Below are positions 2,259-52,728 of a stretch of 64,000 nt of DNA, piece after piece; position 1 is the first letter of the stretch, and each line of letters opens with the position of its first letter. Source of the DNA: Candidatus Bipolaricaulota bacterium (GTDB taxonomy: Bacteria > Patescibacteriota > Patescibacteriia > UBA11705 > DATKZF01); contig DATKZF010000003.1 of assembly GCA_035528115.1 (NCBI GenBank), positions 22,699-86,698 on the forward strand, written 5' to 3'. The position numbers were made by a program, and so were the translations under genes. The notes beneath the pieces are model-generated. The model was not told the origin of the DNA. It worked only from the letters and a program-made list of their open reading frames with translations, and ran no database searches.

Positions 2259-2864
2259 ATGGTCATATACCCTTCCGAAATCGAAAACCTCATCGACAAA
2301 TTCAACAAACTTCCCGGCATTGGCAGAAAAACATCGGAGAAGTTTGTTTTTTATTTGCTCAGGGAAAATCCCCTCTTTCTTAATGAATTTTCAGCCAGCA
2401 TTTTAAATTTGAAAAAAAATCTCAACTTTTGCCAAAAATGCGGCAACTTCTCCGGCACAAAAACGATTTGCGAAATCTGCGCTGATGAACGCAGAGACAA
2501 ATCGCTTCTTTGCATTATCGAAGACATTCAAGATCTGGCCGTGATCGAATCGACCGGAGAATACCACGGGCAATATCACGTGCTCGGAGGACAAATCAAT
2601 CCGCTCGAAGGAATTACTCCCGAAAAATTGAATATTCAAAAATTAATCGACCGAGTCAAAGCCGAAAAATTTTCGGAGATAATTTTGGCCTTAAATCCGG
2701 ACATTCAAGGCGAAGCCACTTCCCTATACTTGGTCAAACTCTTCAAACCGCTCAACGTCAAATTCACCAAACTCGCCCGCGGCCTGGCCATGGGCAGCGA
2801 TTTGGAATACACGGATGAGACCACTTTGACCAACGCGCTCAAAGGCAGGCAGGAGGTAAAGTAA
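2259..2864 (+). CDS. recR: recombination protein RecR
   Basis: 201 aa; HhH (KLPGIGRKTSEK), C4 zinc finger (CQKCGNFSGTKTICEIC) and Toprim region; its last ~36 nt are the repeat unit seen three more times downstream. Confidence 0.9.
   Translation: MVIYPSEIENLIDKFNKLPGIGRKTSEKFVFYLLRENPLFLNEFSASILNLKKNLNFCQKCGNFSGTKTICEICADERRDKSLLCIIEDIQDLAVIESTGEYHGQYHVLGGQINPLEGITPEKLNIQKLIDRVKAEKFSEIILALNPDIQGEATSLYLVKLFKPLNVKFTKLARGLAMGSDLEYTDETTLTNALKGRQEVK
2821..2864 (+). repeat. recR 3'-terminal repeat, copy 1 (native terminus encoding ...TNALKGRQEVK*)
   Basis: ccactttgaccaacgcgctcaaaggcaggcaggaggtaaagtaa. Confidence 0.85.
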
Positions 2865-2989
2865 TTGATCATGGAGCATAAATCATGAAACAAAAACGGA
2901 TTAAATTTGCGATAGCGGTAACGAATCTCGAATAACAATCATCTCATTATAATCAACAATTTCATTAACTTTTATTTACTCAAAAAAAT

Positions 2990-4348
2990 ATGCAAAACTT
3001 TGAAAAACCAAAAGCGATAGACGAACAATGGTATGACACTTTTGAAAAACACGCGGCCTTTCAAGCTTATGAATACATGGATGGCGATAAAGAATACCGG
3101 GAAGAACAAAAAAAGAAATTTATAGCAGGCGAAATGGAAAATCCCGAATTGGATTATCCTAAAATCGATGTGAAAAAAATTGAAGAAACGGAACAAATTC
3201 TTCTAAAGCTTCGTAAAGACATTAAAACCCTGGAAGAAAATGAAATAGTCAGCCAGCTTTACAGGTGGCGGCTTAATGAAAAAATTGCCGAGCTTCGAAT
3301 CCTAAAAGCGGCGGCCAATAAAGACATGCATCGCTTTCAAGGATATTCGGAGTTTGTCTATGGCGCGCCTTCACCTGATATATTCGCTTACACTGTGCAA
3401 AACGTTAGGAAAACCGCTGAAAAGGCCGTTGAATCGGATAATGCTGATGTTAAAAAAACCGCTCAGGAATTGCTGTCCGCTCTGCCAGACAAAATGCCTG
3501 AAGTTAAAATTCAAGAATTGCCCGATGAGCCTACCGTGCAACTGGCTAAAGAAATGACGGAAAAAGAGATGAGCGACTTGATCAACATTTCGTACAAAGA
3601 CGGAAATTTTAACGCTGAAGATATCACGGCAATATTCACCCAAGCTTTGGCCGGCCTGCGCGCCGATGGCTGGCAGGTGGCGATTGACAAAAGCAGTAAA
3701 ACGGCCATCAGCGTTGATCAAGAATTAAAAACAATAAAAATTCCAGAGTCGAGAAAAATGCTTTTTAATAAACTCAGGACGCTGATCGCCCACGAAATAG
3801 GCACTCATGTCGCCCGCCGAACGAACGGAGAGCGAAGCCGCTTGAAATTGCTGGGTCTGGGACTGGATCGGTATGAAAAAGGCGAGGAAGGCGTGGCCAC
3901 AATGAGAGAGCAAGCTTTATCAGAAGAGCTGAATGATTTCGCCGGACTGGACGGCCATCTGGCCATCGGATTGGCATGCGGGCTTGACGACCAACCCAGG
4001 GATTTCAGAAAAGTGTATGAAATTTTGGAAAAATATTACCGGCTGAATAATTTGCTGCGAGGCAAAAAAATGGAAGAAGCCGTATCCGCTTCAACGACAA
4101 TTGCTTGGAACCGCGCGATTCGCACGTTCAGAGGCACTGACTGCAAAACTCCGGGCGTCTGCTTCACCAAGGATATAATTTACCGCGAAGGCAACATTGA
4201 AACATGGAATGTCGTAAAAAATAAACCGGAAGAGATGTCGCGCTTTAGCATCGGCAAATATGATCCGGCCAATCCGCGGCACATTTGGATCCTAGATACG
4301 CTGGGAATAACCGATAAGGAATTAAATCAAGCGCAACAGACCTCCTAA
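2990..4348 (+). CDS. hypothetical protein, DUF1704-like with HExxH motif (putative zinc metallopeptidase)
   Basis: 452 aa; HEIGTHVARR motif and a QALSEEL segment reminiscent of DUF1704 QEGLA-motif proteins (from memory); followed directly by recR-terminus repeat copy 2. Confidence 0.4.
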   Translation: MQNFEKPKAIDEQWYDTFEKHAAFQAYEYMDGDKEYREEQKKKFIAGEMENPELDYPKIDVKKIEETEQILLKLRKDIKTLEENEIVSQLYRWRLNEKIAELRILKAAANKDMHRFQGYSEFVYGAPSPDIFAYTVQNVRKTAEKAVESDNADVKKTAQELLSALPDKMPEVKIQELPDEPTVQLAKEMTEKEMSDLINISYKDGNFNAEDITAIFTQALAGLRADGWQVAIDKSSKTAISVDQELKTIKIPESRKMLFNKLRTLIAHEIGTHVARRTNGERSRLKLLGLGLDRYEKGEEGVATMREQALSEELNDFAGLDGHLAIGLACGLDDQPRDFRKVYEILEKYYRLNNLLRGKKMEEAVSASTTIAWNRAIRTFRGTDCKTPGVCFTKDIIYREGNIETWNVVKNKPEEMSRFSIGKYDPANPRHIWILDTLGITDKELNQAQQTS

Positions 4349-4383
4349 CCAACGCGCTCAAAGGGAGGCAGGAGGTGAAATAA
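4348..4383 (+). repeat. recR 3'-terminal repeat, copy 2
   Basis: accaacgcgctcaaagggaggcaggaggtgaaataa; 4 differences from copy 1, all synonymous in the RecR frame; abuts the stop of the 2990 ORF. Confidence 0.85.
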
Positions 4384-4393
4384 TTTTATAAAT

Positions 4394-4807
4394 ATGAACG
4401 AAAAACTAGAAACTTCCGGCGCTTTGGAAAAAATCAGCGCGGAAAAAATGAAAACTATAATTCAGGATGTGATCGACGACAATTTCTCGGTTTTCGACAA
4501 TGAAACCATGGCCGATTACGATGCTGATTTTTCCGGCGAAGAGCCTTGTCTCATAAACATTTGGGCCAAACGAAAAGGCTATGGATTCGGCTATTTGGTT
4601 TTTCATGATTTTCTGCGCCGAGTCGGTCTTCAAAAAACATTTCTTTCGACGGATTTTACGGAAGAAGGTTCAAACCTTTTTCAAAAAGCGATGTCCGACG
4701 GCTTGATAGAAAAAGTTTCCGAGCCGAGCGGTCTGCAAAGATTGACAAGATGGAAGGTCATAAACGACCCGATTCAAAATCTGGGAAAAATAAGCGACCG
4801 AAAATGA
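4394..4807 (+). CDS. hypothetical protein (cassette between recR-terminus repeats 2 and 3)
   Basis: 137 aa ORF with no recognisable motif; ends exactly at repeat copy 3. Confidence 0.5.
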   Translation: MNEKLETSGALEKISAEKMKTIIQDVIDDNFSVFDNETMADYDADFSGEEPCLINIWAKRKGYGFGYLVFHDFLRRVGLQKTFLSTDFTEEGSNLFQKAMSDGLIEKVSEPSGLQRLTRWKVINDPIQNLGKISDRK

Positions 4808-4815
4808 GATTTTTC

Positions 4816-4851
4816 AACCAACGCGCTGAAAGGCAGGCAGGAGGTGAAGTG
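4816..4851 (+). repeat. recR 3'-terminal repeat, copy 3
   Basis: accaacgcgctgaaaggcaggcaggaggtgaagtga; still encodes TNALKGRQEVK*. Confidence 0.85.
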
Positions 4852-4874
4852 AATATTTTATTAATCTATAATTT

Positions 4875-5528
4875 ATGAGTGCAGAAAATTGGGTACACGC
4901 TAGTTACATAGCAATATTTATTGGCGGTGTTATAGCCGCGTCTGGAGGTTTAGGGAGTTATTTTTTCAAAAATGCTTTGGAAAAAGAAGACTTAACAAAA
5001 AATAAGCCTGCGATTGAAATCAAAACTCAAAAGAATGATAACAAAATAAATTTTTATATAAAAAGCTCAAACGATAACGTAACTTCAATAGCGATTGATT
5101 ACCCTATCTGGGGAATCGTTACTAATATAACGGATTTCAATTCAATAACTGATGCCCAAACAAAAAAAATGGACGTCATAGGATCGACTAATGGTTATTC
5201 TCAGAATAACATTGAGATGCTTCTTGAAAAGATAAAACCAAATACTTCACTCGAATTTGAAGTTTCATTTAATAAAAATGGCATGTCTCCAGAAGATTTG
5301 GATTTAACTATTGTCGATTATGACAAATATATGAGCAGATATAAACTCTCATATACTTGGGAGTACAAAGGGAAAAAATACAGCGAAATGGAATGGCATC
5401 TTACAGGGGATGATAATTTAACCATTAAACCTGCAATAGAGTATAGAGATATTTCTATTATAAAAGAAGAGGATTCAATCACTCAAACGAATGTATCACA
5501 AAGAAGGAGTTTCATAAAAGCAGACTAA
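4875..5528 (+). CDS. hypothetical N-terminally membrane-anchored protein (AT-rich cassette)
   Basis: 217 aa; N-terminal hydrophobic helix (YIAIFIGGVIAASGGLGSYFF); about 30% GC unlike flanking host genes; followed by repeat copy 4. Confidence 0.5.
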   Translation: MSAENWVHASYIAIFIGGVIAASGGLGSYFFKNALEKEDLTKNKPAIEIKTQKNDNKINFYIKSSNDNVTSIAIDYPIWGIVTNITDFNSITDAQTKKMDVIGSTNGYSQNNIEMLLEKIKPNTSLEFEVSFNKNGMSPEDLDLTIVDYDKYMSRYKLSYTWEYKGKKYSEMEWHLTGDDNLTIKPAIEYRDISIIKEEDSITQTNVSQRRSFIKAD

Positions 5529-5555
5529 TCAAAAAACTTTAATAGCTACATGAAG

Positions 5556-5599
5556 CAACTTTAACTAATGCGTTTATAAGGAGGTAAGAGGTGAAATAA
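5556..5599 (+). repeat. recR 3'-terminal repeat, copy 4 (diverged, longer upstream match)
   Basis: caactttaactaatgcgtttataaggaggtaagaggtgaaataa aligns to copy 1 including the upstream cactttgac; coding potential lost. Confidence 0.7.
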
Positions 5600-5609
5600 A
5601 TAAGCAATA

Positions 5610-6521
5610 ATGTTTATTATGGCAAAATATTTAATCGTTTTAGGCGCTGGAGCTAGCTATGGCTCTGACAAGCCAGCAAACACACCACCGCTTACCAATA
5701 AATTATTTGACGAATTGTGTAAATCTAATCCAGAAGGCTGGGGTAGTTTAGATGGGAAATACAAAAAATTATTCAGGCAGGATTTTGAACAAGCGATGGA
5801 ACAAGTTGCAAAGGAACAACCACAGAACATGACAATTCTGCAAAGAGCAATGGCATACTATTTTTATAAATTTGAACCGTACTGTTCAAACCTATATTAT
5901 CAATTAGCTAAAAAAATAAAAAAGACAACATGGGATGGGGCTTTTGTATCCTTCAATTATGAAAGACTTTTAGAACTTTCCTTGTCAAGAGTAGGGTTTC
6001 AACCATATATTGGAAATAAGCCAAAAAATTCAAACAACCTGATAGAATTATGCTTACCCCACGGGTACTGCGATATTTTCTGTACCGCTGTAAAGGCAGG
6101 ATCAACAACAATTTTTTCTGGATGCAATGTTGATGGGCCAGTTAAAAAAACAAAAACGGAAGAAGAATTTGAAGGGGAAATTAAAAATAGTGTGCCACCT
6201 GTCATGAGTTATTTCGTGCCATCAAAAGTAACAATGAGTGGCACTTCTTTCATAAATCAACAAAGGAACAGATTTAAAGAACTTACCCAGACATCCTCTG
6301 TAATTGTCATTATTGGCATGCGGATTCGAAAACATGACGAGCATATTTGGGATCCTCTTTCGAGCACATCTGCCAAAATCATATATTGTGCAGGCACAAG
6401 CGCTGGCGAAGAATTTAAAGTATGGGCAGAAAAAAACAGAAAAGGCAAGGAAGATATAATGCTACAATTATACTTTAGAAATAACTTCAAACAAATATGT
6501 TTTCATTTAGGAATTATCTAA
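5610..6521 (+). CDS. SIR2-like domain protein (SIR2_2 family), candidate NADase defense effector
   Basis: 303 aa; N-terminal LIVLGAGASYGS...P...L motif and FNYERLLE motif match SIR2_2 (PF13289-like) signatures; candidate catalytic Asn at about residue 116 and His at about residue 151; AT-rich. Confidence 0.5.
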   Translation: MFIMAKYLIVLGAGASYGSDKPANTPPLTNKLFDELCKSNPEGWGSLDGKYKKLFRQDFEQAMEQVAKEQPQNMTILQRAMAYYFYKFEPYCSNLYYQLAKKIKKTTWDGAFVSFNYERLLELSLSRVGFQPYIGNKPKNSNNLIELCLPHGYCDIFCTAVKAGSTTIFSGCNVDGPVKKTKTEEEFEGEIKNSVPPVMSYFVPSKVTMSGTSFINQQRNRFKELTQTSSVIVIIGMRIRKHDEHIWDPLSSTSAKIIYCAGTSAGEEFKVWAEKNRKGKEDIMLQLYFRNNFKQICFHLGII

Positions 6522-6591
6522 TGTATAAATTTAGAATGTAACTCTCACAGTATGGCAACGCCATTAAGTAATCGTTAAATGATATAAAATT

Positions 6592-7014
6592 GTGAAAATA
6601 ATTACTAAAATGGAAATACTAAATACACTATTACAAAAAATCAAAGAAATGGACGAAAACATTGAATCTTGCATTATAGACAATTCGATTTGTTTCTCTC
6701 GCGAATTACACGATAAACACACAAATCATCCCCTAAACATGACTAGTGCTATTTGCATTGTAGAGAAACATGATGTTAACTTATATTTATTTATCTCTGA
6801 GCAAAAAAACACGAATGGTAGCAATCAAAAATTTAGCATCCACTTAAAAGATGGGGATAACACACTTTTAAAATATTACGACAAAGACACTAAATTCGGA
6901 ATACACATTCATGAATGCCCCAACGGGAAAAAGGAAAGGGCGCACAAGCCTTTTAATGGAGGAATAAATGAAATCGCACAGGATATAATTAAAATAATAA
7001 ATAATATTTTATGA
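6592..7014 (+). CDS. hypothetical protein
   Basis: 140 aa ORF, AT-rich; 4-nt overlap (ATGA) with the next ORF suggests translational coupling. Confidence 0.45.
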   Translation: MKIITKMEILNTLLQKIKEMDENIESCIIDNSICFSRELHDKHTNHPLNMTSAICIVEKHDVNLYLFISEQKNTNGSNQKFSIHLKDGDNTLLKYYDKDTKFGIHIHECPNGKKERAHKPFNGGINEIAQDIIKIINNIL

Positions 7015-7253
7015 AGATCTTAAAAATTATTGGAGTATTCATGATCGGTATTATAATTGGATATTTTATTTTTCACAAAGAAGACTCTAACGCAAACCTT
7101 GAGTACGGCCAAACAGGCGCTCCTAAAAATTGCAAAGCAATTATTTATGAAAATTATTTTGCATATAAAATTTCTGAAAAAATTACAGCAGAAGACGCTC
7201 TCACTTCCATTTATAGGAATTGTGGTGAAAATGGCCCAGCTTGGGAAAATTAA
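7011..7253 (+). CDS. small membrane-anchored hypothetical protein
   Basis: 80 aa; N-terminal TM helix (ILKIIGVFMIGIIIGYFIF). Confidence 0.4.
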   Translation: MKILKIIGVFMIGIIIGYFIFHKEDSNANLEYGQTGAPKNCKAIIYENYFAYKISEKITAEDALTSIYRNCGENGPAWEN

Positions 7254-7260
7254 AAAAACT

Positions 7261-7491
7261 ATGTCCAAATCTTGCACATCTTATAACTTCCCCTTAGGCA
7301 AATACAAACATTTCAAAGGCAATATCTACGAAGTCATCGGCTCGGCCAAACACAGCGAAACATTGGAAGATTTGGTGATTTATCGCTCGGTTGAGAATCC
7401 CGACGAGCTTTGGGTTCGGCCGAAAAAAATGTTTTTTGAAGAAGTGGAAGTAAACGGAGAGAAGATTCCCAGATTCGAATTTATGGAATAA
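7261..7491 (+). CDS. DUF1653 domain protein
   Basis: 76 aa; YKHFKGNIYEVIGSAKHSETLEDLVIYRS...ELWVRP matches the DUF1653 consensus; the longer track ORF 7057..7491 is an upstream read-through. Confidence 0.55.
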   Translation: MSKSCTSYNFPLGKYKHFKGNIYEVIGSAKHSETLEDLVIYRSVENPDELWVRPKKMFFEEVEVNGEKIPRFEFME

Positions 7492-7520
7492 ACGGCTCAG
7501 GCGAGGCCGTTTTTTGTTTT
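7492..7520 (+). terminator. putative rho-independent terminator
   Basis: acggctcaggcgaggccgt hairpin followed by ttttttgtttt. Confidence 0.45.
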
Positions 7521-7534
7521 CCCCAATATAATTC

Positions 7535-7560
7535 GAGTTGACTTGAAAAAATGTTATAAT
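7535..7560 (+). promoter_or_regulatory. extended -10 promoter (TGtTATAAT) for the 7588 gene
   Basis: atgttataat at 7551-7560, about 28 nt upstream of ATG 7588. Confidence 0.35.
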
Positions 7561-7587
7561 ATTTACAAAGATTATTAATTCCAACAT

Positions 7588-7842
7588 TTGGAAATTATTA
7601 TAAAAAATATGACACCTTACATTTTAATTTCAATCATTGTATTGGCAGTTATAGCGGCGCTGGTCTTTTTCCTCAAGGGCAAAAAATCAGGCGCCAAGCT
7701 CACGCCCTTAGCCGGAATTAGTTTCGCTTTCATTTTGGCGGGCATGGTTTTCGGCGAGAGCAGGATTGTTGGGTATAGCTTAATGGGCGCGGGCGTGGCT
7801 TTGGCGATCGTGGACATGATACTTAAATTGAAAAATAAATAA
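7588..7842 (+). CDS. small membrane protein (2 TM)
   Basis: 84 aa; two hydrophobic helices. Confidence 0.45.
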   Translation: MEIIIKNMTPYILISIIVLAVIAALVFFLKGKKSGAKLTPLAGISFAFILAGMVFGESRIVGYSLMGAGVALAIVDMILKLKNK

Positions 7843-7846
7843 TTTT

Positions 7847-7880
7847 AAAACCCCGAACAGCTGTTTAGCTGACGGGGCTT
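7847..7880. terminator. putative bidirectional terminator hairpin
   Basis: aaaaccccgaacagctgtttagctgacggggctt; ccccg/cgggg stem; lies between convergent genes. Confidence 0.35.
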
Positions 7881-7893
7881 GATGGAACATCCG

Positions 7894-8148
7894 TTACTCG
7901 CTAAGCTTGTCCGCGCGCCGGTAGATTTTGATCGTGTCGGTTTGATCATCCGGTTTTCGCACGAATTCCTTTCGCACGATGGCGCGCAGCAAATCGAGAA
8001 CGCAAACAAGTCCCGCGACCGGCATCTCCCATTCTCCGACCAGATGGTCTCCTTGCTCGCTGTCTCTCCAGAGGCTGACTTTTTCAAGACCCACGTAATA
8101 GCGGATCTTGGTCACCAGACGCAGTTTATACAGTTCAAGGTCAATCAT
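7894..8148 (-). CDS. hypothetical protein downstream of rplU; possibly ribosomal-processing cysteine protease Prp-like
   Basis: 84 aa; strong SD (ggaggagga) before ATG; QGDH...GLVCVL weakly resembles the Prp His/Cys dyad region; position after rplU is typical for prp. Confidence 0.3.
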   Translation of the reverse strand: MIDLELYKLRLVTKIRYYVGLEKVSLWRDSEQGDHLVGEWEMPVAGLVCVLDLLRAIVRKEFVRKPDDQTDTIKIYRRADKLSE

Positions 8149-8265: not shown

Positions 8266-8640
8266 TTATTTCTTCACAGTTTTTGTAGCCGTTTTTTTCG
8301 GCTCAACCTTCTTTACTCCAGCTTTCACTCCGCCAACGCTTAAAATTTTAATTTGCGTAAAAGGCTGCCGATGTCCGTATTTTCTTCGATATCTGGTTTT
8401 GCTTTTGTACTTGATAACATCAATTTTTTTGGCTCTGCCCTGCTCTATAATTTCCGTTTCGACTTTCTTTGAAGTGAGCGGCAGGCCCAAATCAAAATCC
8501 TTAGCTGAAGCATCAGAGACGAGCATGGCGTCAAACGAAACCTTATCGCCGGCCTGGCCTTCAATTTTTTCTATTTTCAACATTTTGTTAGGAGTAACAA
8601 CGTATTGCTTGCCTCCGGTTTTTATCACTGCAATGATCAT
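8266..8640 (-). CDS. rplU: 50S ribosomal protein L21
   Basis: 124 aa; MIIAVIKTGGKQYVV... is a typical bL21 N-terminus; Lys-rich C-terminal extension. Confidence 0.85.
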   Translation of the reverse strand: MIIAVIKTGGKQYVVTPNKMLKIEKIEGQAGDKVSFDAMLVSDASAKDFDLGLPLTSKKVETEIIEQGRAKKIDVIKYKSKTRYRRKYGHRQPFTQIKILSVGGVKAGVKKVEPKKTATKTVKK

Positions 8641-14057: not shown

Positions 14058-14250
14058 GTTAGTTACAAATTACATTCACCTATAGCTTTAATCCTGAGAA
14101 TCTTGTAATTCCTGCCTGCTCCTCGAGTCTGAGCGACCTCGGAGTCGAAGACCGGCAGGCAGGCGTAACAGATGACCTAGAAGCTTAATAGCGGATTGTA
14201 ATTCGTAACAAATAACCTGAAAGCTAAATAATCGATTGTAATTCGTAACA
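14058..14250. repeat. MITE-like element family A (TIR ttgttacgaattacaa) with nested family B palindrome
   Basis: shares gtaatttgtaac / ttgtaattcgtaaca termini and an internal agctttcaggttatttgttac module with five other copies in the window. Confidence 0.7.
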
Positions 14251-16224
14251 TTAATCATAATAAATCGTCCTATCCTGCGAATCATTATCCAAATACGCGT
14301 TAAAATAATCATCCCCGCCCACGGTCACGTAAAGCGAAGGCTCCAATTCCTTGATGAACATGGACGGCTGATTTATCATTTCTCCGTATTCATAACTGAT
14401 GGTTCTGATCGGATAAATCATGGATAGTTCCTCCTTCGCCCGAGTAACGGCCACGTAAAAAAGCCGGCGCTCTTCTTCGAGCTGCGCCCGATCTTCCATT
14501 GATTTATGATGAGGGAACGCGCCGTCGCAAAGGCCTATAATAATGACATATGGCCATTCCAGGCCTTTGGCCTGATGGATGGTGGACAAGACCACTTCAT
14601 CTCGCGCCTCGGCGTCATTACGCCGATAACTTTCGCTGAGCATCACGTCGGTCAGCAGATCTTCGAGTTTTTCATAAGTGACCACGAAATTCATCAGCTG
14701 CCTGATGTCGTCGAGCCGGTCGCGATAGTTTTCAAAAACATTTCTGGCGTACTCTTTGTAATCCAAATCCAAAACGCATTTGATCATGTCCGCGATGCCG
14801 CGATTGTTTTCCTTTATTTCAAACATTTTTCTCAAAATATTGTTCAAATCATTCCAGCTGGCGCTCGCCCTCGAGCCGACCTGAATCTTAGTCGCCAAAA
14901 CTTCGTTCAAACTTTCGAACTTTTGAATTTTTTTCCAAATAGCGTCCGCGTTTTTCACGCCAATGCCTTCGCGCATTTTCAACAAACGCTTCCAGGAAAT
15001 CTCGTCCCTGAAATTTTGAATGATTTTCAAATATGAAACAATGTCTTTGATATGAGCCTGCTCGAAATAACGCAAACCGCCGCGAACGACATAAGGAATG
15101 TTTCTTTTGCTCATTTCCAGCTGCAATTCCGCGGATTGAAAAGTCGAGCGAAACAAAACCGCAGCCTCGCGCAAAGCTCGGCCTTTGTCTTTGATTTCCA
15201 AAATCCTATTGACCACCATGCTAGCCTGCTGATAAACGTCGCGCGCCGGAATGAGAATCGGCAAAATGCCATCGGGTTTATGAGTATTCAAATTTTTCCT
15301 AAATTGATCCTTGTTTTTTTCAATGCTGGCGTTGGCCAGATCCAAAATCTGCGGAGTCGAGCGGTAATTGGTTTCCAATTTGTAAATTTTTGCGTTTTCA
15401 AATCTTTTGGGAAAATTCAAAATGTTTTTTATATCCGCGGCGCGAAAAGAATAAATGCTCTGCGAATCGTCGCCGACCACCAAGACATTTTGATGAACGG
15501 ACGCCAATTCGTAAATTATTTCCGCTTGAATATGATTGGTGTCCTGATACTCATCCACCAAAATATAATGGAATCTCTCTGATAATTTGGTTTTGGTTTC
15601 CGGGAATTTTTTGAGCAAATCCAGCCACTTGGTCAAAAGATCATCAAAATCCATCAAGTTGGCCGATTTTTTCTTTTCCTCGTAGGAGGCCGCCACGTCA
15701 TCGATTTTATGGCTGACAAAATCGGGATAGCCGTAAATCTCCTCGGCCACTTCCAGCACGGGTTTTCTCGTGTTAAAAGCGAATGAAATTATGGAATGAA
15801 CCAAATCGGCTTTGGGAAAATCGTGGCCTTTGGTTTTTATGCCGAAATCTTCATAAACCGATTTCAATAATGTCACGCTGTCGTCTTGATCCAAAATATT
15901 AAAATTGCTTTGATAACCCAGCTTAGCCGCGTATTGTCTTAAAATCACGTTGCCGATATGGTGAAACGTGCCGGCCCAAAACTTCTTCGGCTCAAAGCCC
16001 AGCAATTTTTTTATTCGCTCCATCATTTCATTGGCCGCTTTATTGGTGAAAGTGACCAATAAAATATTTTCCGGCGAAACGCCTTTTTCAATCAAATACG
16101 CGACACGATAAACCAAAGTTCTGGTTTTTCCGCTGCCCGCTCCGGCCAAAACCAAAGCCGGCCCGTCCGCTTCGCTGACGACCTTGTATTGTTCTTCGTT
16201 CAGTTCCTTTTTAAAATCTATCAT
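14251..16224 (-). CDS. uvrD: ATP-dependent DNA helicase UvrD/PcrA family
   Basis: 657 aa; motif I AGAGSGKTRTL; motif II VDEYQDTN; UvrD-like C-terminal domain. Confidence 0.85.
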   Translation of the reverse strand: MIDFKKELNEEQYKVVSEADGPALVLAGAGSGKTRTLVYRVAYLIEKGVSPENILLVTFTNKAANEMMERIKKLLGFEPKKFWAGTFHHIGNVILRQYAAKLGYQSNFNILDQDDSVTLLKSVYEDFGIKTKGHDFPKADLVHSIISFAFNTRKPVLEVAEEIYGYPDFVSHKIDDVAASYEEKKKSANLMDFDDLLTKWLDLLKKFPETKTKLSERFHYILVDEYQDTNHIQAEIIYELASVHQNVLVVGDDSQSIYSFRAADIKNILNFPKRFENAKIYKLETNYRSTPQILDLANASIEKNKDQFRKNLNTHKPDGILPILIPARDVYQQASMVVNRILEIKDKGRALREAAVLFRSTFQSAELQLEMSKRNIPYVVRGGLRYFEQAHIKDIVSYLKIIQNFRDEISWKRLLKMREGIGVKNADAIWKKIQKFESLNEVLATKIQVGSRASASWNDLNNILRKMFEIKENNRGIADMIKCVLDLDYKEYARNVFENYRDRLDDIRQLMNFVVTYEKLEDLLTDVMLSESYRRNDAEARDEVVLSTIHQAKGLEWPYVIIIGLCDGAFPHHKSMEDRAQLEEERRLFYVAVTRAKEELSMIYPIRTISYEYGEMINQPSMFIKELEPSLYVTVGGDDYFNAYLDNDSQDRTIYYD

Positions 16225-21276: not shown

Positions 21277-21296
21277 TTTAATTTCTCCTAAAAATA

Positions 21297-21390
21297 TTGT
21301 AATTCGTAACATTTATTAATCGGCCACCCAGATCATTGTACTTCGTAACAAATTACCTGAAAGCTTCACAGAATATTGTAATTCGTAACA
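21297..21390. repeat. MITE-like element family A
   Basis: ttgtaattcgtaaca ... acctgaaagct ... ttgtaattcgtaaca. Confidence 0.65.
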
Positions 21391-21391
21391 C

Positions 21392-21685
21392 TCATTTTTT
21401 CCCCCGCATCACTCCTTGCACCCTAATCTGCCCACTCTCAACTTCCGGCGCCTGACCGAGTAATTTTTCCGCCGAATAAATCAAATGAACTTCGTCCTCG
21501 CGACTGACATTGCTCAAGCCGGTGATATGCGAAACCGGTTCGATATTGCTCAAATCGATTGACTTTAATTCTTCGAAATATTTGAAAACTTCACCGATTT
21601 GCTTGGCGTATTTTTCTTTTTCTTCCTCGCTTATCCCGAGCCTGGCCAAGATCGCCAGCCTCTCTATCAACTCCTTATTTATCAT
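21392..21685 (-). CDS. gatC: Asp/Glu-tRNA amidotransferase subunit C
   Basis: 97 aa; LAILARLGISEEEKEKY... is typical of GatC. Confidence 0.85.
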   Translation of the reverse strand: MINKELIERLAILARLGISEEEKEKYAKQIGEVFKYFEELKSIDLSNIEPVSHITGLSNVSREDEVHLIYSAEKLLGQAPEVESGQIRVQGVMRGKK

Positions 21686-22717: not shown

Positions 22718-25700
22718 ATGAAACGGATGATCGTGTGTCTTATGGTTGTTCTTCTGGCCGCAAGCTGCGGCAACAGCGCGTCCACCCGCAAGGTGGAAAC
22801 CGACGCCGGTCCCGCGCTCGAATGCGGGGAGGGCACCATCAAAGTGGACGGAGAATGCCGTCCGAAAGACGAACTCTGCAACGGCATCGACGACGACGGG
22901 GACGGAGTGACGGACGAACAGTGCGTCATCCCTCCCAGCAACGTGGCCTGTGGCGCGGGTACCATCCTCGTAGATGGGGAATGCGTTCCCCTGCCAAATC
23001 AGGACTACGATGAGGACAACGACGGCTTCTCGCCGTTCGAAGGCGACTGCAACGACGACGATCCGACCATCAACCCGACGGCGACCGAAGTCTGTGATGA
23101 ACTGGACAACAATTGCGACGGGCAGGTAGACGAGGACGATCCGTCGCAGGACGATTTCTGCATCTCGATGAACCAGTACAACGGCAATTACGTTGCCGTT
23201 CAGGGTACGGAGAGGTGCCATGGGATCGCCGGCATGATCTGCACGCCGCTACCGGTCGAGCTATGCCGGCAAAACGCAGAAATCTGCGACAATGCTCTCG
23301 ACGACAACTGCGACGGCGTGGTGGACGAGGGCTGCGACCCCGACTTTGACTTTGACAAAGACGGCTTCAGTCCGTTCGACGGAGACTGCGACGACGACAA
23401 CCGCGACATCCATCCGGATGCCATCGAAAGCTGCAACGGCCTGGACGACGACTGCGACGGCCAGATCGACGAGGGCTACCCGATCCAGTTTTTCCTCCGC
23501 GACGCGGATGGAGACGGGCACGGAGATCCCGAAAACATGATTCAGGCCGCCGACTGTCTCTCCGCGCCGTACGGATACATCGACTGGATCGTCGACCTTG
23601 ACAACGACTGCGACGACAGCGACAGTCACGTCAACCCCGCGGCCATCGAGTACTGCAACAACATCGACGATGACTGCGACGGCGCGACCGACGAGGACGA
23701 CCCGGATATGGGTATTGCCTGCACGGCCGTGCTGAGTCTGCACGACCACGACGTGCCGATCCTCGGCGTCAACCTCTGTGAGAACGGAGAGATGCTGTGC
23801 ACGCCTCCGCCGCTGGAAGAATGCCAGCTGCAGACGGAAATCTGCGGCGACATCTACGACAACAACTGCGACGGGCAGGTGGACGAGGACTGTGAAGAAG
23901 ATGGGGCCCCGCACTACTGCGAGCCGGTCTACACCAACTACGGCATCCTGATCGGCTACCGCGGCTGTTGCGGCGCCAGCCCGCTGACTACTACTCATCC
24001 CGAAGCGGGCATGTTGATCAAGACGCATGAGTACAGCTCAGTGTACTACTACGCCAGTGACGGATTCAGGTATGTCTTCCCGACTACGCTCGAGCTAGAT
24101 TCCTGGTACTCTCCCCTCGACGAATACGGCATCCCCGTTTCGCCCAACGAGGAGATCTGCCAGCAGGTCTACGACGTTTCACTCCTTGTGTTGGCATCGA
24201 TTCCAATGGGCATGAAAAACGTCACCCTTCGTCCCGGAGCATTCGTCACCGGAAGCACGACGGACTCGAGCCAGCGCTACGTGGTGGATCACTGCGCGAC
24301 GCGGAAAGAAGTCGATCCGATCACCGTGCTGGATGAGATCTACTCGTCCAACTACGGGTCGACCGCCTGGGAGCGAACGCACCCGGTGTGGAATGTCATG
24401 TGGGGCATGTACACGACCGGTCAGACAGTCACCTCCGCCGATAATTTCGACTGGCTGGAAACATACCAGTCGGCAACCATCGAAGAGGAGCTGGGAATCA
24501 GCGGGATGTGCGTCGACCAGGACGGCGACGGCTACAGCCCATTCGCGGGCGATTGCGACGACGGAAATGATTCGCTCTTTCCCGGCGCGCAGGAACTCTG
24601 CGACGGGATTGACAATAACTGCGACGGCGAAACCGACGAAGATTTCGCCGAGTATCTCGGCCAGCCATGCAGAGGATACGCCCGTAACGGTGAATTCCTC
24701 GATGGCTACTGTTCCGAGATCGGGACAGTCGTTTGCCATAACAACCTCGCGCTCAGGTGTTCATCCGCTGACGAAAATTCGCGGTGGACAACCGATTACA
24801 ACTGGTCGTTGCCCGAAGTCTGCGGCAACAGCCTCGACGACAACTGCGACGGGCAGGTGGATGAAGGCTGCGACCAGCCGCCGGACGGAGTGAGCTTCTG
24901 CGAAGTCGACGATGACTGCGCGGATGCCGCCTGGGGCCAGTACTGCGTGTATTCGCTAGTACTGGATGCCAGCTTCTGCCAGGCTTGTCGGCAAGACGTC
25001 GACCCCGTGGACATGTCTCAATGGGAGTCTGTCGGATGCGGTGGTCAGACGCCAATCTGCGCATGGGGAGTCCAAACCGTACCCGTAAGCGATGCGTTTC
25101 CCGATGGGTATGCGCCGTTCTACTGGTGCGTGGAATGCGTCCTCGACACGGACTGCACACCGGGGTTCATCTGCTCGCAAGACAATTTCGTCTGCGAGCA
25201 GCAAGCCGCCGCCGCGACTTTGACTGTCGATGTCGCCGGCATGCCGGCTTCCGGCAATACCTACGTCAAAGGCACTGACGGAGTTCCGGCCGTAGGATTC
25301 ATCTTCACGGCCGGCGATTCCGCTGACGCGCTGGTCAATTCCGTGAAATTGACGGTGTACCTCGACAACAACCAAAACGGCTTTAGCGATACCGCGGATG
25401 TCGATGACACTTCGGGCGCCCAAAACGTTTTGGCGACAGTCACCATCTACGACGCAGGGACTCCGACAACCCCGCTGGCCGACGCCAAGAACCTGACAGT
25501 CAATGCCAGCGACATCACCGTTCAGTTCGACTCGTTGAACTGGACAGTCCCATCAGGCAGTACAAAAGCTCTGTTGGTCAAAGCGACGTTGTCGACCACA
25601 GCTCCTTTGAGCGGAGATGACGACGATTTCGCCTTGACGATCCAGGAGTCTGGCGATGTTGACGCCGAAGATGGCAATGGCACGGCGGTCAATGTCGTTC

Positions 25701-26719
25701 TGCAAAACGGCAACCAGGAACCGGATGTCTGGCAAACCGCAACCGGTGGCGGCATCCTGGACCTGACCGAAGCAACAAGCACACCCGTCTCATCCTTGCT
25801 CGTGGCCGGCACCTCGAACAACCTGGTTTCCGTGGTCGAATTCGCTTCGACCGGCGAAGCCTTCATCGTCGAGAGAATGCAGGTCTACGATGCCGACGGC
25901 AATGGCTATGATGAGATCGGTGCCGTCAGAGTAAGCTATACGAACAGCCTCGGCGAGACCGAAGCCAAGGCCGCGATCCCGGACATGAACGGGATTGCAA
26001 TTTTCAACAACTTGGACATCTATGTCCCGAAAGATGCGGCCGCGGATGTCCGGATCTTTACGGATCTGAACACGGTCGCGGGTAGCGCGGACAATGGCGA
26101 TTCAATCAGACTCACGGTGGCCGAATCCGCGAACTTCAGAGCGGTCGGACGAGAGTCGGGGGTCGTCGTCATCGACACGGCGGCTGCAGCTGACCCTGAG
26201 GTCAACAGCCACTACGTGTTCGAGTCCGTACCGAGTGTTGCCTTCGCGGTGGACACTCCGTCCGGAAATCTGATCCCGAGCGCCAACACTTTGTTGGCTA
26301 AATTAGCGGTCACCGCTGACGGCGCGAAGGACATCACGTTCGACGCGGCTACCGGCGATATTACTTTCAAGATCAGCTCTTCTTGCGCCGGCACGGCGAC
26401 AGGAGATGTTTACTTGAAAGACGCAGATGGAACCACTTTGGCTACACCCACCGCTATCGCTCCGTGTTCCGCCACCAGCGTTAAGTTCCTTTTCGAAGAT
26501 GTTACCACCGACTGGAGAGTTCCGGCCGGCGAGACCAAGTACTTGTATGTTTGGGGTGATACGTCAATGATGACGTCTCAGGGCGATTCCATCCAGCTCT
26601 GGTTGGATGACGCTTCAAATGCAAACTTCACTTGGAGCATCAACGGAATCGGCACTTACCAACATGCTGACATCCTCTTTAGAGGCGATAAGTATGGCGG
26701 TCTGTTGCTCAAGCCATAG
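22718..26719 (+). CDS. giant lipoprotein with about 10 MopE-type putative metal-binding repeats (CxxxDDDCDGxxDE) and C-terminal beta-rich repeats
   Basis: 1333 aa; lipoprotein signal MKRMIVCLMVVLLAASC; repeated DxDGDGxSPFxGDCDDxxxxxxPxAxExCDGxDNDCDGxxDE units; C-terminal half Thr/Val/Ala-rich tandem modules. Confidence 0.7.
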   Translation: MKRMIVCLMVVLLAASCGNSASTRKVETDAGPALECGEGTIKVDGECRPKDELCNGIDDDGDGVTDEQCVIPPSNVACGAGTILVDGECVPLPNQDYDEDNDGFSPFEGDCNDDDPTINPTATEVCDELDNNCDGQVDEDDPSQDDFCISMNQYNGNYVAVQGTERCHGIAGMICTPLPVELCRQNAEICDNALDDNCDGVVDEGCDPDFDFDKDGFSPFDGDCDDDNRDIHPDAIESCNGLDDDCDGQIDEGYPIQFFLRDADGDGHGDPENMIQAADCLSAPYGYIDWIVDLDNDCDDSDSHVNPAAIEYCNNIDDDCDGATDEDDPDMGIACTAVLSLHDHDVPILGVNLCENGEMLCTPPPLEECQLQTEICGDIYDNNCDGQVDEDCEEDGAPHYCEPVYTNYGILIGYRGCCGASPLTTTHPEAGMLIKTHEYSSVYYYASDGFRYVFPTTLELDSWYSPLDEYGIPVSPNEEICQQVYDVSLLVLASIPMGMKNVTLRPGAFVTGSTTDSSQRYVVDHCATRKEVDPITVLDEIYSSNYGSTAWERTHPVWNVMWGMYTTGQTVTSADNFDWLETYQSATIEEELGISGMCVDQDGDGYSPFAGDCDDGNDSLFPGAQELCDGIDNNCDGETDEDFAEYLGQPCRGYARNGEFLDGYCSEIGTVVCHNNLALRCSSADENSRWTTDYNWSLPEVCGNSLDDNCDGQVDEGCDQPPDGVSFCEVDDDCADAAWGQYCVYSLVLDASFCQACRQDVDPVDMSQWESVGCGGQTPICAWGVQTVPVSDAFPDGYAPFYWCVECVLDTDCTPGFICSQDNFVCEQQAAAATLTVDVAGMPASGNTYVKGTDGVPAVGFIFTAGDSADALVNSVKLTVYLDNNQNGFSDTADVDDTSGAQNVLATVTIYDAGTPTTPLADAKNLTVNASDITVQFDSLNWTVPSGSTKALLVKATLSTTAPLSGDDDDFALTIQESGDVDAEDGNGTAVNVVLQNGNQEPDVWQTATGGGILDLTEATSTPVSSLLVAGTSNNLVSVVEFASTGEAFIVERMQVYDADGNGYDEIGAVRVSYTNSLGETEAKAAIPDMNGIAIFNNLDIYVPKDAAADVRIFTDLNTVAGSADNGDSIRLTVAESANFRAVGRESGVVVIDTAAAADPEVNSHYVFESVPSVAFAVDTPSGNLIPSANTLLAKLAVTADGAKDITFDAATGDITFKISSSCAGTATGDVYLKDADGTTLATPTAIAPCSATSVKFLFEDVTTDWRVPAGETKYLYVWGDTSMMTSQGDSIQLWLDDASNANFTWSINGIGTYQHADILFRGDKYGGLLLKP

Positions 26720-33139: not shown

Positions 33140-33332
33140 AATTTGTTACGAATTACATTCTTCCATTTAGCTTCCAAGCGGTTGTTACGCCTGCCTGCTC
33201 CTCGAGTCTGAGCGACCTCGGAGTCGAAGACCGGCAGGCAGGAAGTACATTAACTTATAGCTTTAAGCCTGAGAATCTTGTAATACGTAACAAATAACCT
33301 AAAAGCTAAATAGAATATTGTAATTCGTAACA
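33140..33332. repeat. MITE-like element family A with nested family B palindrome (33190-33242)
   Basis: gtaatttgttacgaattacattc ... cctgcctgctcctcgagtctgagcgacctcggagtcgaagaccggcaggcagg ... ttgtaattcgtaacaa. Confidence 0.7.
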
Positions 33333-33335
33333 ATG

Positions 33336-37670: not shown

Positions 37671-37808
37671 ATGTTACGAATTACAATATTCTATTTAGCT
37701 TTCAGGTTATTTGTTACTAATTACAATCTTCTTAAGCATAATGCTATGGGTGAATGTAATTTGTAATATTCGTCTGTAGGCCAAATGGAATCTTGTAATT
37801 CGTAACAA
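37671..37808. repeat. MITE-like element family A (about 85% identical to the copy at 1714-1829)
   Basis: atgttacgaattacaat...agctttcaggttatttgttac...ggtgaatgtaatttgtaa...ttgtaattcgtaacaatg. Confidence 0.7.
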
Positions 37809-37878
37809 TGTAACAATGATTCATGTTATGTGTTATGTGATACGTGTTACGTGATATGTGTTCCATGATCCAGGAAAT

Positions 37879-41993: not shown

Positions 41994-42205
41994 TTGTCAT
42001 CTCGACCGCCTGCCTGCTCCTCGAGTCTGAGCTCGGAGTCGAAGACCGGCAGGCAGGAAGTCGTCCGAAGCCGCGGCGAAGGATGACGAAGCGGAGAGAT
42101 CTTTTCCTAATTAACCATCGTTGTCATCTCGACCGAAGCGGAGAGATCTTTTCCTAATTAACCATCGTTGTCATCTCGACCGAAGCGGAGAGATCTTTTC
42201 CTAAT
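41994..42205. repeat. three tandem family C MITE-like copies (first with nested family B palindrome at 42009-42057)
   Basis: ttgtcatctcgacc...gaagcggagagatcttttcctaattaaccatcg repeated three times. Confidence 0.7.
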
Positions 42206-42215
42206 TCTTCGGAAT

Positions 42216-42300
42216 AGATTTCTCCATCCCCGGTTTCCAATTTCCGGTTTCCGGTTTCTATTTCCCATTCCCCATTACTCTTTACCAATTACTTTTAACA
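42216..42300 (+). promoter_or_regulatory. conserved upstream module (family E) ahead of the 42310 operon
   Basis: atttctccatccccggtttccaatttccggtttccggtttc is nearly identical to 262-302 upstream of dnaB. Confidence 0.5.
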
Positions 42301-43584: not shown

Positions 43585-45333
43585 ATGAAAAAAATCGCGC
43601 TTTTCGCTTTTTGCATTTTTTTCGTTTTATCAATCAGGCCGGCTGACGCGGCCAATACTTTTTGCGATTGCCAAAACAGAACCGGCGACTGCCAAATACT
43701 TTGCAGCGGCTATCAAGATTCGGATAAAATTTGCGAATGCGAAGTCGGACAATCCTTTACCGCTATAGATCAAACGGTCTGCGACACCCAATGCGCGGCT
43801 CAAGCCGCGGCCGCCGCGAGCGCGAATTTACCCAAAGTCAATTCCATTTTCTGCGATTGCAACACTCAAATTTCGCAAACAAACGATCAATGTAAAACAC
43901 AATGTCCCAATTACAATAATCAAAAAATCTGCATGTGCGCAATCGGCGCCAAACCGACAACGATGAACGCGGATGCGACCGCCGCCGTCTGCCAAACAGA
44001 TTGCCAAACCGCGGCGGCCGGGCAAACGGAAACCTCTCCGCCCGCCGAAACCTCGGTTGAAGCCGGACAACCGGCTCCGGCCACCTCGCCGGCCATCAAA
44101 CCCAAATTATACGTGCCCATTCCCGATCTCCATTTTTCCGATGTTGTCTTGGCCACCACTGGCGGCGGCGCGGCCAGCCTGCCTTGGATTTCCGAATATG
44201 TCATTGCCGTTTACAAATACGCCATGGGCATCGGTTCTATTTTGGGCATTATTATGATCATGATCGCCGGGGTCTTGTACCTGACCTCAGCCGGCAATCC
44301 TCAAAGAGTCGGACAGGCCAAAGATTATATTGTCGGCTCAGTGATCGGCTTGACCGTTTTGTTTTCTTCGTATTTGATTTTGAATTTTATCAATCCTCAA
44401 TTAACAAAATTAGGCAGTCTCCAATTTCAAACCGTTTCTTTGGAACAACTTGAGATAGAATTCCAAGACGCGGAAGCCGTGGGCAGAGAGGATGTTAATG
44501 CCGGAGATTACGCCCCCATTCCCGGAGCCGCGCCTTCGGCGCCCGCTCCCCGCCCGTCAGGAGAAGTATTGCCTGTAGTTGCGCTAGATCCAGACAATTG
44601 TAAACCCAGTAAACCCAGTGGGATTGGCAACGCATCCTTGCTTTCAAAATATCAGGAAATGAATTGTTTAAGCCTTGGCCAAAGAAGTTTAGCTAACATA
44701 ACCAGAGTATACATTCATGAGGGTTCAACCGCCGAAAAAAATGTAAAATCTTGGATTAATAAATACAAAAAAGAAGGAAAAACCATAAGCAGCCACTACA
44801 CGATCAACCGCGACGGAACAATCTATCAAATGTTAGGTGAAGAAAAAGTCGCGGCTCATGTTCCATGTAGAAAAGTTTTTAATGAAAGAACCGGAAAAAA
44901 AGATAAATGTGACCCAAATGGAATACCCAACAAGAACTCCATTGGAATTGATTTGGAAGTCAATGTCCGAACAGCATACTATTGGAGCAAAATCAATACT
45001 TGCTTGGGATTGGTGAAAGATAAAAAGATTAAAGGGGTTGAAAACACAAAGGAAGCCGCGATCGAATTCTGCACACCCACATATACCCAAGCCCAGTATG
45101 ATTCTCTGAAAAAATTATTGCAGAGCATTGCCGGCAGAACAGGCTATTCTTATGACATAAGCCACACTTTCGCTCATTGCGAATGGGGCGGGCACACCGA
45201 TCCTCGAAACTTTGACTGGTCAAAACTGGGTCAAAGCACTGAGACGCATCAAGACAGAAATCCGAGCTATTGTAAATATTTTCCCATTTATGAAGAGAGG
45301 GTCAAAGAACTTGCTGATAAACTTTTTCAATAA
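43585..45333 (+). CDS. secreted Cys-rich protein with T4SS-pilin-like TM hairpin and C-terminal N-acetylmuramoyl-L-alanine amidase (Amidase_2/PGRP) domain
   Basis: 582 aa; signal peptide; more than 20 Cys in the N-terminal domain; pilin-like AMGIGSILGIIMIMIAGVLYLTSAGNPQRVGQAK motif; amidase motifs HYTINRDGTIYQ, IGIDLE and FAHCEWGGHTDPRNF. Confidence 0.6.
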   Translation: MKKIALFAFCIFFVLSIRPADAANTFCDCQNRTGDCQILCSGYQDSDKICECEVGQSFTAIDQTVCDTQCAAQAAAAASANLPKVNSIFCDCNTQISQTNDQCKTQCPNYNNQKICMCAIGAKPTTMNADATAAVCQTDCQTAAAGQTETSPPAETSVEAGQPAPATSPAIKPKLYVPIPDLHFSDVVLATTGGGAASLPWISEYVIAVYKYAMGIGSILGIIMIMIAGVLYLTSAGNPQRVGQAKDYIVGSVIGLTVLFSSYLILNFINPQLTKLGSLQFQTVSLEQLEIEFQDAEAVGREDVNAGDYAPIPGAAPSAPAPRPSGEVLPVVALDPDNCKPSKPSGIGNASLLSKYQEMNCLSLGQRSLANITRVYIHEGSTAEKNVKSWINKYKKEGKTISSHYTINRDGTIYQMLGEEKVAAHVPCRKVFNERTGKKDKCDPNGIPNKNSIGIDLEVNVRTAYYWSKINTCLGLVKDKKIKGVENTKEAAIEFCTPTYTQAQYDSLKKLLQSIAGRTGYSYDISHTFAHCEWGGHTDPRNFDWSKLGQSTETHQDRNPSYCKYFPIYEERVKELADKLFQ

Positions 45334-52314: not shown

Positions 52315-52338
52315 CCACGTCGTTCGAGAACGACGTGG
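52315..52338 (-). terminator. hairpin ccacgtcgttcgagaacgacgtgg abutting the tRNA-Ser 3' end
   Basis: perfect 10-bp stem; its terminal tgg supplies the encoded CCA. Confidence 0.5.
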
Positions 52339-52425
52339 CGGAGAGGGCGGGAGTCGAACCCGCACACCGCTTTTAGACGGTGACGGTTTAGCAAACCGCT
52401 GCCTTACCATTCGGCGCACCTCTCC
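52336..52425 (-). tRNA. tRNA-Ser(GCT), intact copy
   Basis: class II tRNA; acceptor GGAGAGG/CCTCTCC; anticodon stem-loop CGGTT-TGCTAAA-AACCG; long variable arm CACCG..CGGTG; T arm GCGGGTTCGACTCCCGC. Confidence 0.8.
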
Positions 52426-52659: not shown

Positions 52660-52728
52660 CTGATCACATATCACGTATCTTGAAACACATAGCAATCTAT
52701 GGCCTGCCAGCCGTAGCCTTGGCGAAGG

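Follow-up and report, generated by a model that had tools for sequence, protein, structure and literature searches.

Gene gain at one fixed site takes several described forms. Among Xer-dependent modules, the integrative mobile elements exploiting Xer (IMEX) use Xer recombination at dif, and pdif modules are carried on Acinetobacter plasmids. The islands and tycheposons of Prochlorococcus show ladders of partial tRNA ends. Similar ladders, made of repeats of the ssrA 3′ end, mark the ssrA-specific genomic islands of Dehalococcoides (PMC3146451), and tandem accretion of cis-mobilizable elements (CIMEs) and other integrative elements is known at the 3′ ends of protein-coding genes, e.g., that of ICESt1/ICESt3-related elements at fda in Streptococcus thermophilus (PMC5704250). 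The locus described here lies directly behind recR in a 64-kb stretch of a bacterial genome of the Candidate Phyla Radiation (CPR) type (positions 22,699 to 86,698 of contig DATKZF010000003.1, referred to as the window; unlabelled coordinates are those of the window), where the last 36 nt of recR recur as three imperfect direct copies interspersed with unrelated single genes.

As judged from sequence comparisons, the recR 3′ end is a repeated gene-insertion site in this CPR-type bacterium, of interest mainly for its integrase-less miniature units and for a spare terminus that has been conserved. In the reading preferred here, to which a probability of roughly one half is given, small, promoterless units entered the recR 3′ end repeatedly by Campbell-type insertion, catalysed in trans, and the copies are the target-site duplications that resulted. 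CPR (Patescibacteria) genomes are tiny and gene gain in them is little understood. No report of recR as an integration target was found in the literature, which for integrons in Patescibacteria gave resistome surveys only.

Copies of the recR terminus in the window and in relatives

The four direct copies announced by the original prediction (T1 to T4; Table 1) were recovered by repeat search, shuffling and a hidden Markov model (HMM) built from the copies; all are in the same orientation and in register. A 35-mer search allowing up to three mismatches found three sites in the window and none in 100 shuffled sequences, the HMM matched only T1–T4 across the 64 kb, and it gave no more copies in the upstream sequence of L051, about 7.7 kb (L numbers are labels of the loci compared). 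Chance and a generic repeat are ruled out by the shuffles and the HMM scan, the 36-mer not being generic within the window and this upstream sequence. The predicted coordinates of copies 1, 2 and 4 were correct, and those of copy 3 were one base off. Instead of the four differences first counted, T2 and T3 each show three relative to T1, at five distinct variable positions altogether, and all five are indeed silent in the RecR frame, which keeps its 11 residues and stop. The chance of five synonymous changes out of five is 5e-4 under uniform substitution and 6e-3 if only transitions are considered. T3 has GGC and AAG in common with T1, and its CTG and TGA are its own. When polarised with outgroups, T1 carries the derived synonymous states (GGC, GTA and AAG) and T2 retains the ancestral ones, so the synonymous-only signal mostly reflects change on the functional, coding T1 lineage and need not be taken for a sign that the displaced copies were once coding. 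The Pfam domain RecR_C covers residues 175–198 of the window RecR.

T4 is more diverged, with 11 of its 36 positions unlike T1 and 8 unlike T2. Among these eight, seven are changes from G/C to A/T, and the RecR frame of T4 is broken by an in-frame stop after TNAFIRR. The likeness extends about 14 nt upstream of the core, left to about 5550 (the extension had been noticed and put at about 8 nt), and the T4 region matches the recR end of a relative, L002, over 51 nt (80% identity, E = 8e-7). That this copy is older or came from another donor, as had been proposed, is consistent with the AT bias of its decay and with the low GC content of the surrounding block (GC content at third codon positions, GC3, 0.26–0.32). 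The first base of T2 is the last base of the stop codon of the MATCAP gene (4346-4348), T3 begins 9 nt past the stop of the 137-aa open reading frame (ORF), and the T4 core begins 35 nt past that of the 217-aa ORF, or 21 nt if the extension is counted. The identical RecR protein occurs on eight contigs from different assemblies with the same array gene order on all eight, and in both assemblies compared at the DNA level the array is 100% identical to the window; an assembly artefact is therefore ruled out. Exact look-ups of the RecR, 137-aa and 217-aa proteins for population variants led to the same eight contigs in the same order.

Table 1. Features of the recR–rplU interval in the window (spacer, terminus copies, cassettes, cargo and flanks)
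Feature	Position	Strand	Details
recR, intact target gene	2259..2864	+	201 aa; Pfam RecR_HhH, RecR_ZnF, Toprim_4, RecR_C
T1, working recR terminus	2829..2864	+	TNALKGRQEVK and stop; reference copy of the repeat
AT-rich spacer between T1 and cassette 1	2865..2989	+	27% GC
Cassette 1, MATCAP/DUF1704-type metallocarboxypeptidase	2990..4348	+	452 aa; HEIGTH motif; Pfam PF08014, E=3e-26
T2, pseudo-terminus	4348..4383	+	33/36 identical to T1; ancestral states kept
Cassette 2, conserved family	4394..4807	+	137 aa
T3, pseudo-terminus	4817..4852	+	33/36 identical to T1
Cassette 3	4875..5528	+	217 aa; N-terminal hydrophobic segment; low-GC block begins
T4, decayed pseudo-terminus	5550..5600, core 5564-5599	+	Frame broken
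Low-GC cargo without separating recR-end copies	5610..7253	+	ORFs of 303 aa (5610-6521), 140 aa (6592-7014) and 80 aa (7011-7253)
DUF1653 gene, final member of the co-directional string	7261..7491	+	Pfam PF07866, E=3.5e-28
Terminator-like hairpin, the strongest on the plus strand from recR to the convergent genes	7490..7512	+	
First conserved right-flank gene	7894..8148	-	84 aa; homologous to L002 12127-12408 (-), E=5e-8
rplU, right flank	8266-8640	-	Synteny with L002 resumes here

The relatives compared form a small genus of Patescibacteria type, delimited by RecR proteins at 84–91% identity, the next relatives being at about 60%. The site varies among them, as the original prediction had anticipated for serial insertion: the DNA 3′ of recR, up to rplU, differs in every species, and in L001, L018, L038 and L053 other genes follow recR and there are no terminus copies. 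L002 holds a single cassette between two copies, in the order recR–T1′–MATCAP–T2′, followed by 60 nt and then the conserved flank (a small reverse gene and rplU), which is the product expected of a single insertion into an empty site. Its MATCAP orthologue, at the same place, shows 80% amino acid and 78% DNA identity to that of the window, and the flanking dnaB, ybaB and recR genes show 78–80% DNA identity, with a synonymous divergence (dS) of 1.25–1.31. Terminus duplications are confined to the window, L002 and a third member of the genus, L047, and none was found among about 35 more distant recR loci.

In L047 a 219-aa ORF stands between the recR end and a 76-nt copy of that end. It is this displaced copy, together with the 25-nt leader that follows, that matches the genuine recR end and leader of L038, and the working terminus is foreign-like, resembling that of L054. 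A native-like displaced copy and a foreign-like working end are what insertion into the working terminus predicts, and the event is independent of that in the window and L002. The reciprocal markers in L047 (ACC/ACG and TTA/TTG), considered as proof of circle integration, are not decisive, both combinations being found in genuine termini elsewhere. Direct repeats in one orientation and register would also arise if the recR 3′ end had been duplicated in tandem together with its downstream gene and the duplicated genes had then diverged or been replaced, but this does not lead one to expect the native-like displaced copy of L047, and the cassette proteins of the window show no detectable similarity to one another and differ in composition and phylogenetic distribution. 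Since they are not paralogues this explanation is ruled out for the array, and we give it next to no credence.

T2 is 35/36 identical between the window and L002 (42/43 with its immediate flanks), whereas third codon positions of the flanking genes are about 60% identical and intergenic DNA cannot be aligned, including the spacer between T1 and cassette 1, which is 66 nt long in L002. This conservation has P = 2.6e-7 against neutral expectation and P = 1.5e-3 against the coding average, and at the 12 third positions of the RecR frame T2 has one change versus six in the working termini (P about 0.02–0.03). Because such identity persists over saturated synonymous divergence (dS about 1.3), and a dead remnant should resemble T4, T2 appears to be functionally constrained and kept by selection, as judged from the two genomes that alone bear on it. 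The remnant model of the original prediction does not predict this. Concerted evolution of T1 and T2 is rejected, as T2 differs at one position from the T2 of L002 and at three from its own T1, and the distances are additive. T2 may be a live recombination site, it may serve intermittently as the working recR end once upstream cassettes are lost, its frame thereby being kept open, or it may have some role at the nucleotide level.

One form of the last possibility is that the 36-mer acts in cis on expression, through a GGAGG of Shine-Dalgarno type, as a site of RNA processing or as a 3′ stabiliser; it would have been copied for its help in expressing or separating the genes that follow, and its likeness to recR would be secondary. 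The repeat contains AGGAGGTGA, T2 is conserved throughout, silent sites of the RecR frame included (11/12 third positions identical versus 6/12 for T1), and the next start codon follows 10 nt past both T2 and T4. The distance from GGAGG to the next ATG, however, is 16–30 nt, more than a Shine-Dalgarno sequence allows, T2 is conserved in L002 yet no plus-strand gene lies downstream of it, and genuine recR termini vary freely at synonymous sites. No structure was detected, Rfam gave nothing relevant between 1500 and 9000, and the explanation offers no mechanism by which copies would be made; it is considered improbable.

Origin of the copies

In the preferred reading, an incoming unit would carry a stretch matching the recR end (36–39 nt for T2 and T3, at least 51 nt for T4 and 76 nt for L047). 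Recombination within this stretch would leave recR intact and place a second copy of the terminus on the far side of the insert, presumably by way of circular intermediates. The recombinase would act in trans rather than be encoded by the array, and could be a tyrosine recombinase from elsewhere, or RecA acting on short homology. At least three to four events would have taken place in the genus: MATCAP with T2 in the ancestor of the window and L002, T3 and T4 in the window lineage, and the separate event in L047. T2 and T3 would still be under selection, as live recombination sites or as reserve recR ends after cassette loss, T4 would be dead and decaying, and some later additions may have been made at the right edge of the displaced copy T2.

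Several observations weigh against this reading. The duplicated length varies, as listed above, which implies several element types or a process that is not site-specific. L038 and L047 differ exactly at the start codon that follows their common leader, a third junction type. The MATCAP cassette next to recR, together with T2, is shared with L002 at core-gene divergence (78% versus 78–80%) and so predates every other part of the array that can be dated, and the 3.5 kb specific to the window (4384-7893) lie distal to T2, beyond the oldest cassette; synteny with L002 breaks 3–4 nt past the T2 stop codon, at the right edge of T2. Serial insertion as originally predicted is thus upheld as insertion with target duplication, by the variation among relatives and the L047 event, and fails as a ladder with the newest unit next to recR. 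At the junction of T2 and the 137-aa gene, the end of T2 and the untranslated stretch GAAATAATTTTAT overlap the 5′ untranslated region (UTR), GAAATAAATTTT(T)AT, of cassette-type homologues of that gene. GAAATAA-TTTT is the candidate microhomology here and, alongside the variable boundaries, this suggests joining through short homology rather than at a fixed crossover point. Among the eight assembled contigs of the species, all with the full array, no circle or empty-site junction was seen.

The searches for an enzyme and for site structure point the same way. In agreement with the original prediction, no recombinase or transposase was found in the 64-kb window (Pfam on 45 ORFs, and tblastn with a recombinase fragment from L047), nor any intI or PF00589 protein. 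Core sites of tyrosine and serine recombinases usually show dyad symmetry or a hairpin. The copies have no close-range inverted repeat, dyad symmetry or hairpin potential, and folding of the repeat, with and without flanks and on both strands, gave z scores from -1.2 to +1.6. Paired R''/R' boxes are not present in the copies, and the 36-mer does not have the form of a dif-like 28-bp site (inverted 11-bp arms around a 6-bp centre); lacking hairpin and dyad, the copies are neither attC nor dif. Two further candidates were dropped: compensatory change in a 6-bp inverted repeat (CTTTGA...TCAAAG) at the repeat boundary held in only 5 of 13 termini, and a frameshift fusion of the RecR tail to MATCAP has no slippery site. 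The fragment from L047, which alone of the loci compared has one, lies 1.6 kb past its terminus copy, at the contig end, and belongs to a tyrosine recombinase of Xer/XerA/integron-integrase-like type. It scores with integron-integrase and Xer models, and it matches TIGR02249 in two pieces, which suggests that it is without the IntI-specific insert.

The main rival invokes natural transformation and homology-facilitated illegitimate recombination: DNA from a relative would pair at recR, the anchor, and the gene downstream of recR in this donor would be joined by microhomology. A join a few dozen bases upstream of the recipient recR stop would duplicate the terminus without any recombinase, and the copies would be functionless. 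Variation in duplicated length and junction type, the possible microhomology at the T2/137-aa junction and the lack of a detected recombinase or site symmetry all favour it, as does the fact that the 3′ 120 nt of recR are the best-conserved local DNA (92% in sliding windows). Moreover, the working terminus of L047 is foreign-like, as if a donor allele had replaced it, and each relative differs right after recR, mostly without duplications. Left unexplained are the near-identity of T2 over a dS of about 1.3 while T4 decays, the left boundary common to T2 and T3 within 1–2 nt, and the two testable cassette ORFs, both of which end at their natural stop exactly at the junction. In work on Acinetobacter and pneumococcus, recipient DNA is reportedly deleted as a rule rather than duplicated, which also counts against this rival, and we consider it unlikely, if the one to be taken most seriously.

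The 137-aa gene opens a further line of comparison. Homologues at 70–77% identity stand in gene arrays with repeated intergenic elements in L061 (1054-6694), L062 (152-2490 and 5022-6458) and L067 (228-345). The elements are about 90–170 nt long in L061, with shorter repeats of 30–50 nt in L062; they carry attC-type core boxes at all three loci and end in GTTAGGC, ATTAGGC or GTTATCG followed by GAAAT. Those of L061 fold on the bottom strand as long, imperfect, attC-like hairpins (z = -4.3 and -6.8). The arrays have the look of integron-type cassette arrays with attC sites, from uncultured, apparently CPR-type genomes, and the 137-aa gene can be assigned to a mobile pool because its homologues occupy cassette arrays elsewhere.

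The recR array might, by extension, be a degenerate integron or a cluster of attC sites lacking integron-integrases (CALIN), in which IntI delivered the cassettes, the recR end served as a secondary site or resembled attI, and the copies took the place of attC. Its units are promoterless, co-oriented single ORFs with minimal untranslated sequence, as in integron-type arrays, and part of the 5′ UTR of the 137-aa cassette homologues is kept in the window. The bottom strand of the repeat has GTTGGTY where the homology ends, a sequence similar to the GTTRRRY core, and the L047 fragment scores with integron-integrase models. Yet the copies neither fold nor carry paired boxes, the window has no intI, insertion by IntI at a secondary site would not duplicate 36–76 nt of target, the L047 boundary AATGGGCAG is without a GTT core, and the two-piece TIGR02249 match suggests the lack of the IntI-specific insert. 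Membership of the array in this class is close to refuted, and we hold it to be very improbable.

It could also be speculated that the recR end is the attachment platform of an undescribed CPR cassette-capture system, functionally integron-like, with linear sites made of a coding terminus and with a recombinase encoded elsewhere or host recombination; this is a tentative and doubtful proposal. Its promoterless, ORF-sized cassettes would be expressed by read-through and its sites maintained by selection, and with the RecR frame preserved in the spare copies, recR would survive the loss of any cassette undamaged. If such a platform were active, it would exemplify an economical means of gaining and expressing single accessory genes downstream of a housekeeping operon, with no integrase to be carried, and its cassette-like units, with boundary sites of traceable origin, would bear on the origin of integron-type cassettes. 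On a conservative reading the locus is a target-end ladder whose target codes for protein and whose units have been reduced to one gene each, and even this leaves a non-coding 36-mer, scarcely changed over saturated synonymous divergence, in need of explanation.

Cargo, flanks and the rest of the window

Cassette 1 also matches the NCBIfam family QEGLA, weakly, and its ORF stops at the C-terminal position usual for the MATCAP family, members of which in other CPR genomes do not adjoin recR. The 137-aa protein of cassette 2 has 36 homologues at 56–77% identity; its AlphaFold model has a predicted local distance difference test score (pLDDT) of 83 and its top PDB matches are GNAT folds with E values of at least 0.013, so the predicted fold is weakly GNAT-like. 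It had no match in phage or plasmid collections. The 217-aa protein of cassette 3 had none in Pfam, NCBIfam or PADLOC, and its family is sparse and distant (at most 44% identity; GC3 0.28). For the 303-aa ORF the sole match was a weak one to PADLOC PDC-S21. In viral contigs neither the 303-aa nor the 217-aa protein led to a useful match, and the back-translated recR terminus and a longer recR-end pattern had none; a phage or plasmid donor was accordingly rejected on the collections searched. The cargo at 5610..7253 is absent from L002, and its GC3 lies in the range (0.26–0.32) of the whole block 4853-7260, compared with 0.42–0.54 in neighbouring genes; the block is foreign in composition.

All genes between 2990 and 7491 are on the plus strand, other minus-strand ORFs falling within them, and the spacers from a terminus copy to the next start codon measure 10–126 nt. 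No strong plus-strand terminator was detected between the cassettes or anywhere from recR to 7490. Given the common orientation and the position of the terminator, the cassettes are probably co-transcribed by read-through from the dnaB-ybaB-recR transcript. The DUF1653 gene is not called in public records of the contig, where a 97-aa ORF on the opposite strand is called instead (L051 15036-15329). At about 7500–8260 gene orientation flips from plus to minus, the GC skew changes sign and cumulative skew peaks; the recR–rplU variable interval may be at or near the replication terminus, and no dif-like site was recognised there by eye.

Two copies of a small palindrome, CGTCGGACTTTAGTCCGAGC, lie between ybaB and recR (2155-2174 and 2201-2220), and a similar hairpin, CCCGACTTTAGTCGG, lies directly 3′ of recR in L047 (174-190); these may represent an element of the genus akin to repetitive extragenic palindromes. 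In the relatives the variable region is made up of small genes on the reverse strand. Each has a near-consensus promoter of its own and a terminator hairpin that recurs, AAAAACCCACGCAA...TTGCGTGGGTTTT (L001 15690-15730; L002 12650-12690; L018 1851-1913 and 2398-2460; L038 565-600), and these modules differ in kind from the promoterless plus-strand cassettes of the window. In L053 (3268-5901) dnaB specifies an 877-aa protein with an intein (Intein_splicing, LAGLIDADG_3), whereas the window DnaB has 452 aa and no intein. The window RecR (P0001) is labelled Candidatus Bipolaricaulota at NCBI; Patescibacteria/CPR is indicated both by the nearest relatives of this RecR and by the genes found in the window, and the source bin is probably mislabelled.

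Further along the window, a 16-nt motif, ATTGTAATTCGTAACA, is present at 14183-14253, 21284-21393, 33305-33335 and 37780-37810, often paired about 40 nt apart, and reversed at 33144-33176 and 37672-37704; it may be an operator or a promoter element that serves a regulon. The segment 22000-28000 has 58–61% GC in a 45% GC genome and looks foreign in composition; within it, 22718-26719 specifies a 1333-aa protein of Cys/Asp-rich repeats (CxxxxDDDCDG-type). A 47-nt unit is repeated three times in tandem at 42087-42227 (two perfect, one 72%), upstream of a gene at 42310. Adjacent paralogues at 43585-45333 and 45337-47148 have type IV secretion pilin-like and Amidase_2 domains, with DNA stretches 85–92% identical, and a 162-nt direct repeat (52355-52516 and 52589-52750; 97% identical) overlaps tRNA-Ser genes at 52336-52425 and 52730-52819.

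Comparison with known systems

As in CIME accretion, the direct repeats at recR copy the 3′ end of the target and flank tandem units, the target is restored, and content varies among relatives; gene-end repeats with an intact recR are likewise found in L002 and L047. Some units of CIME arrays lack an integration gene and rely on a recombinase in trans, as is proposed here. The units at recR, however, are single genes of 0.45–1.5 kb with almost no non-coding DNA, whereas CIMEs are decayed islands of several kb, and neither a cognate integrase nor any remnant of an integrase or transfer gene was found in the array or the 64-kb window. A further difference is the CPR/Patescibacteria-type host, and one internal copy is conserved across species.

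With the ssrA islands the locus has in common a hypervariable region after one single-copy gene, punctuated by repeats of its 3′ end, with repeat numbers that vary between strains and some units without an integration module. In Dehalococcoides the target is an RNA gene, the repeat has a fixed length of 20 bp, and the islands measure 10–30 kb, most of them with a serine-recombinase module beside attL. At recR the target is a protein-coding end, which accounts for the codon-aware variation of the copies, and repeat length is not fixed.

Integrons and CALIN arrays resemble the locus in their promoterless, co-oriented, ORF-sized cassettes, their recurring site, a content that varies between relatives and probable expression from an upstream promoter, and the 137-aa gene is itself a cassette in attC-type arrays elsewhere. 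The site at recR differs in that it copies a gene terminus in linear form and has neither hairpin nor paired cores, no IntI was found in the window, and the platform is the end of a housekeeping gene rather than attI. IMEX and pdif modules are likewise small, recombinase-less, bounded by a short recurring site and moved by a host enzyme; an Xer-like recombinase gene lies near the L047 array, and the locus is at a convergence of orientation and GC skew, but the 36-mer is without the 11-6-11 dyad of dif and derives from the coding sequence of recR. The locus is set apart from all of these by single-gene promoterless units, a protein-coding CPR target, the lack of an integration module and a displaced copy that appears to be under selection.

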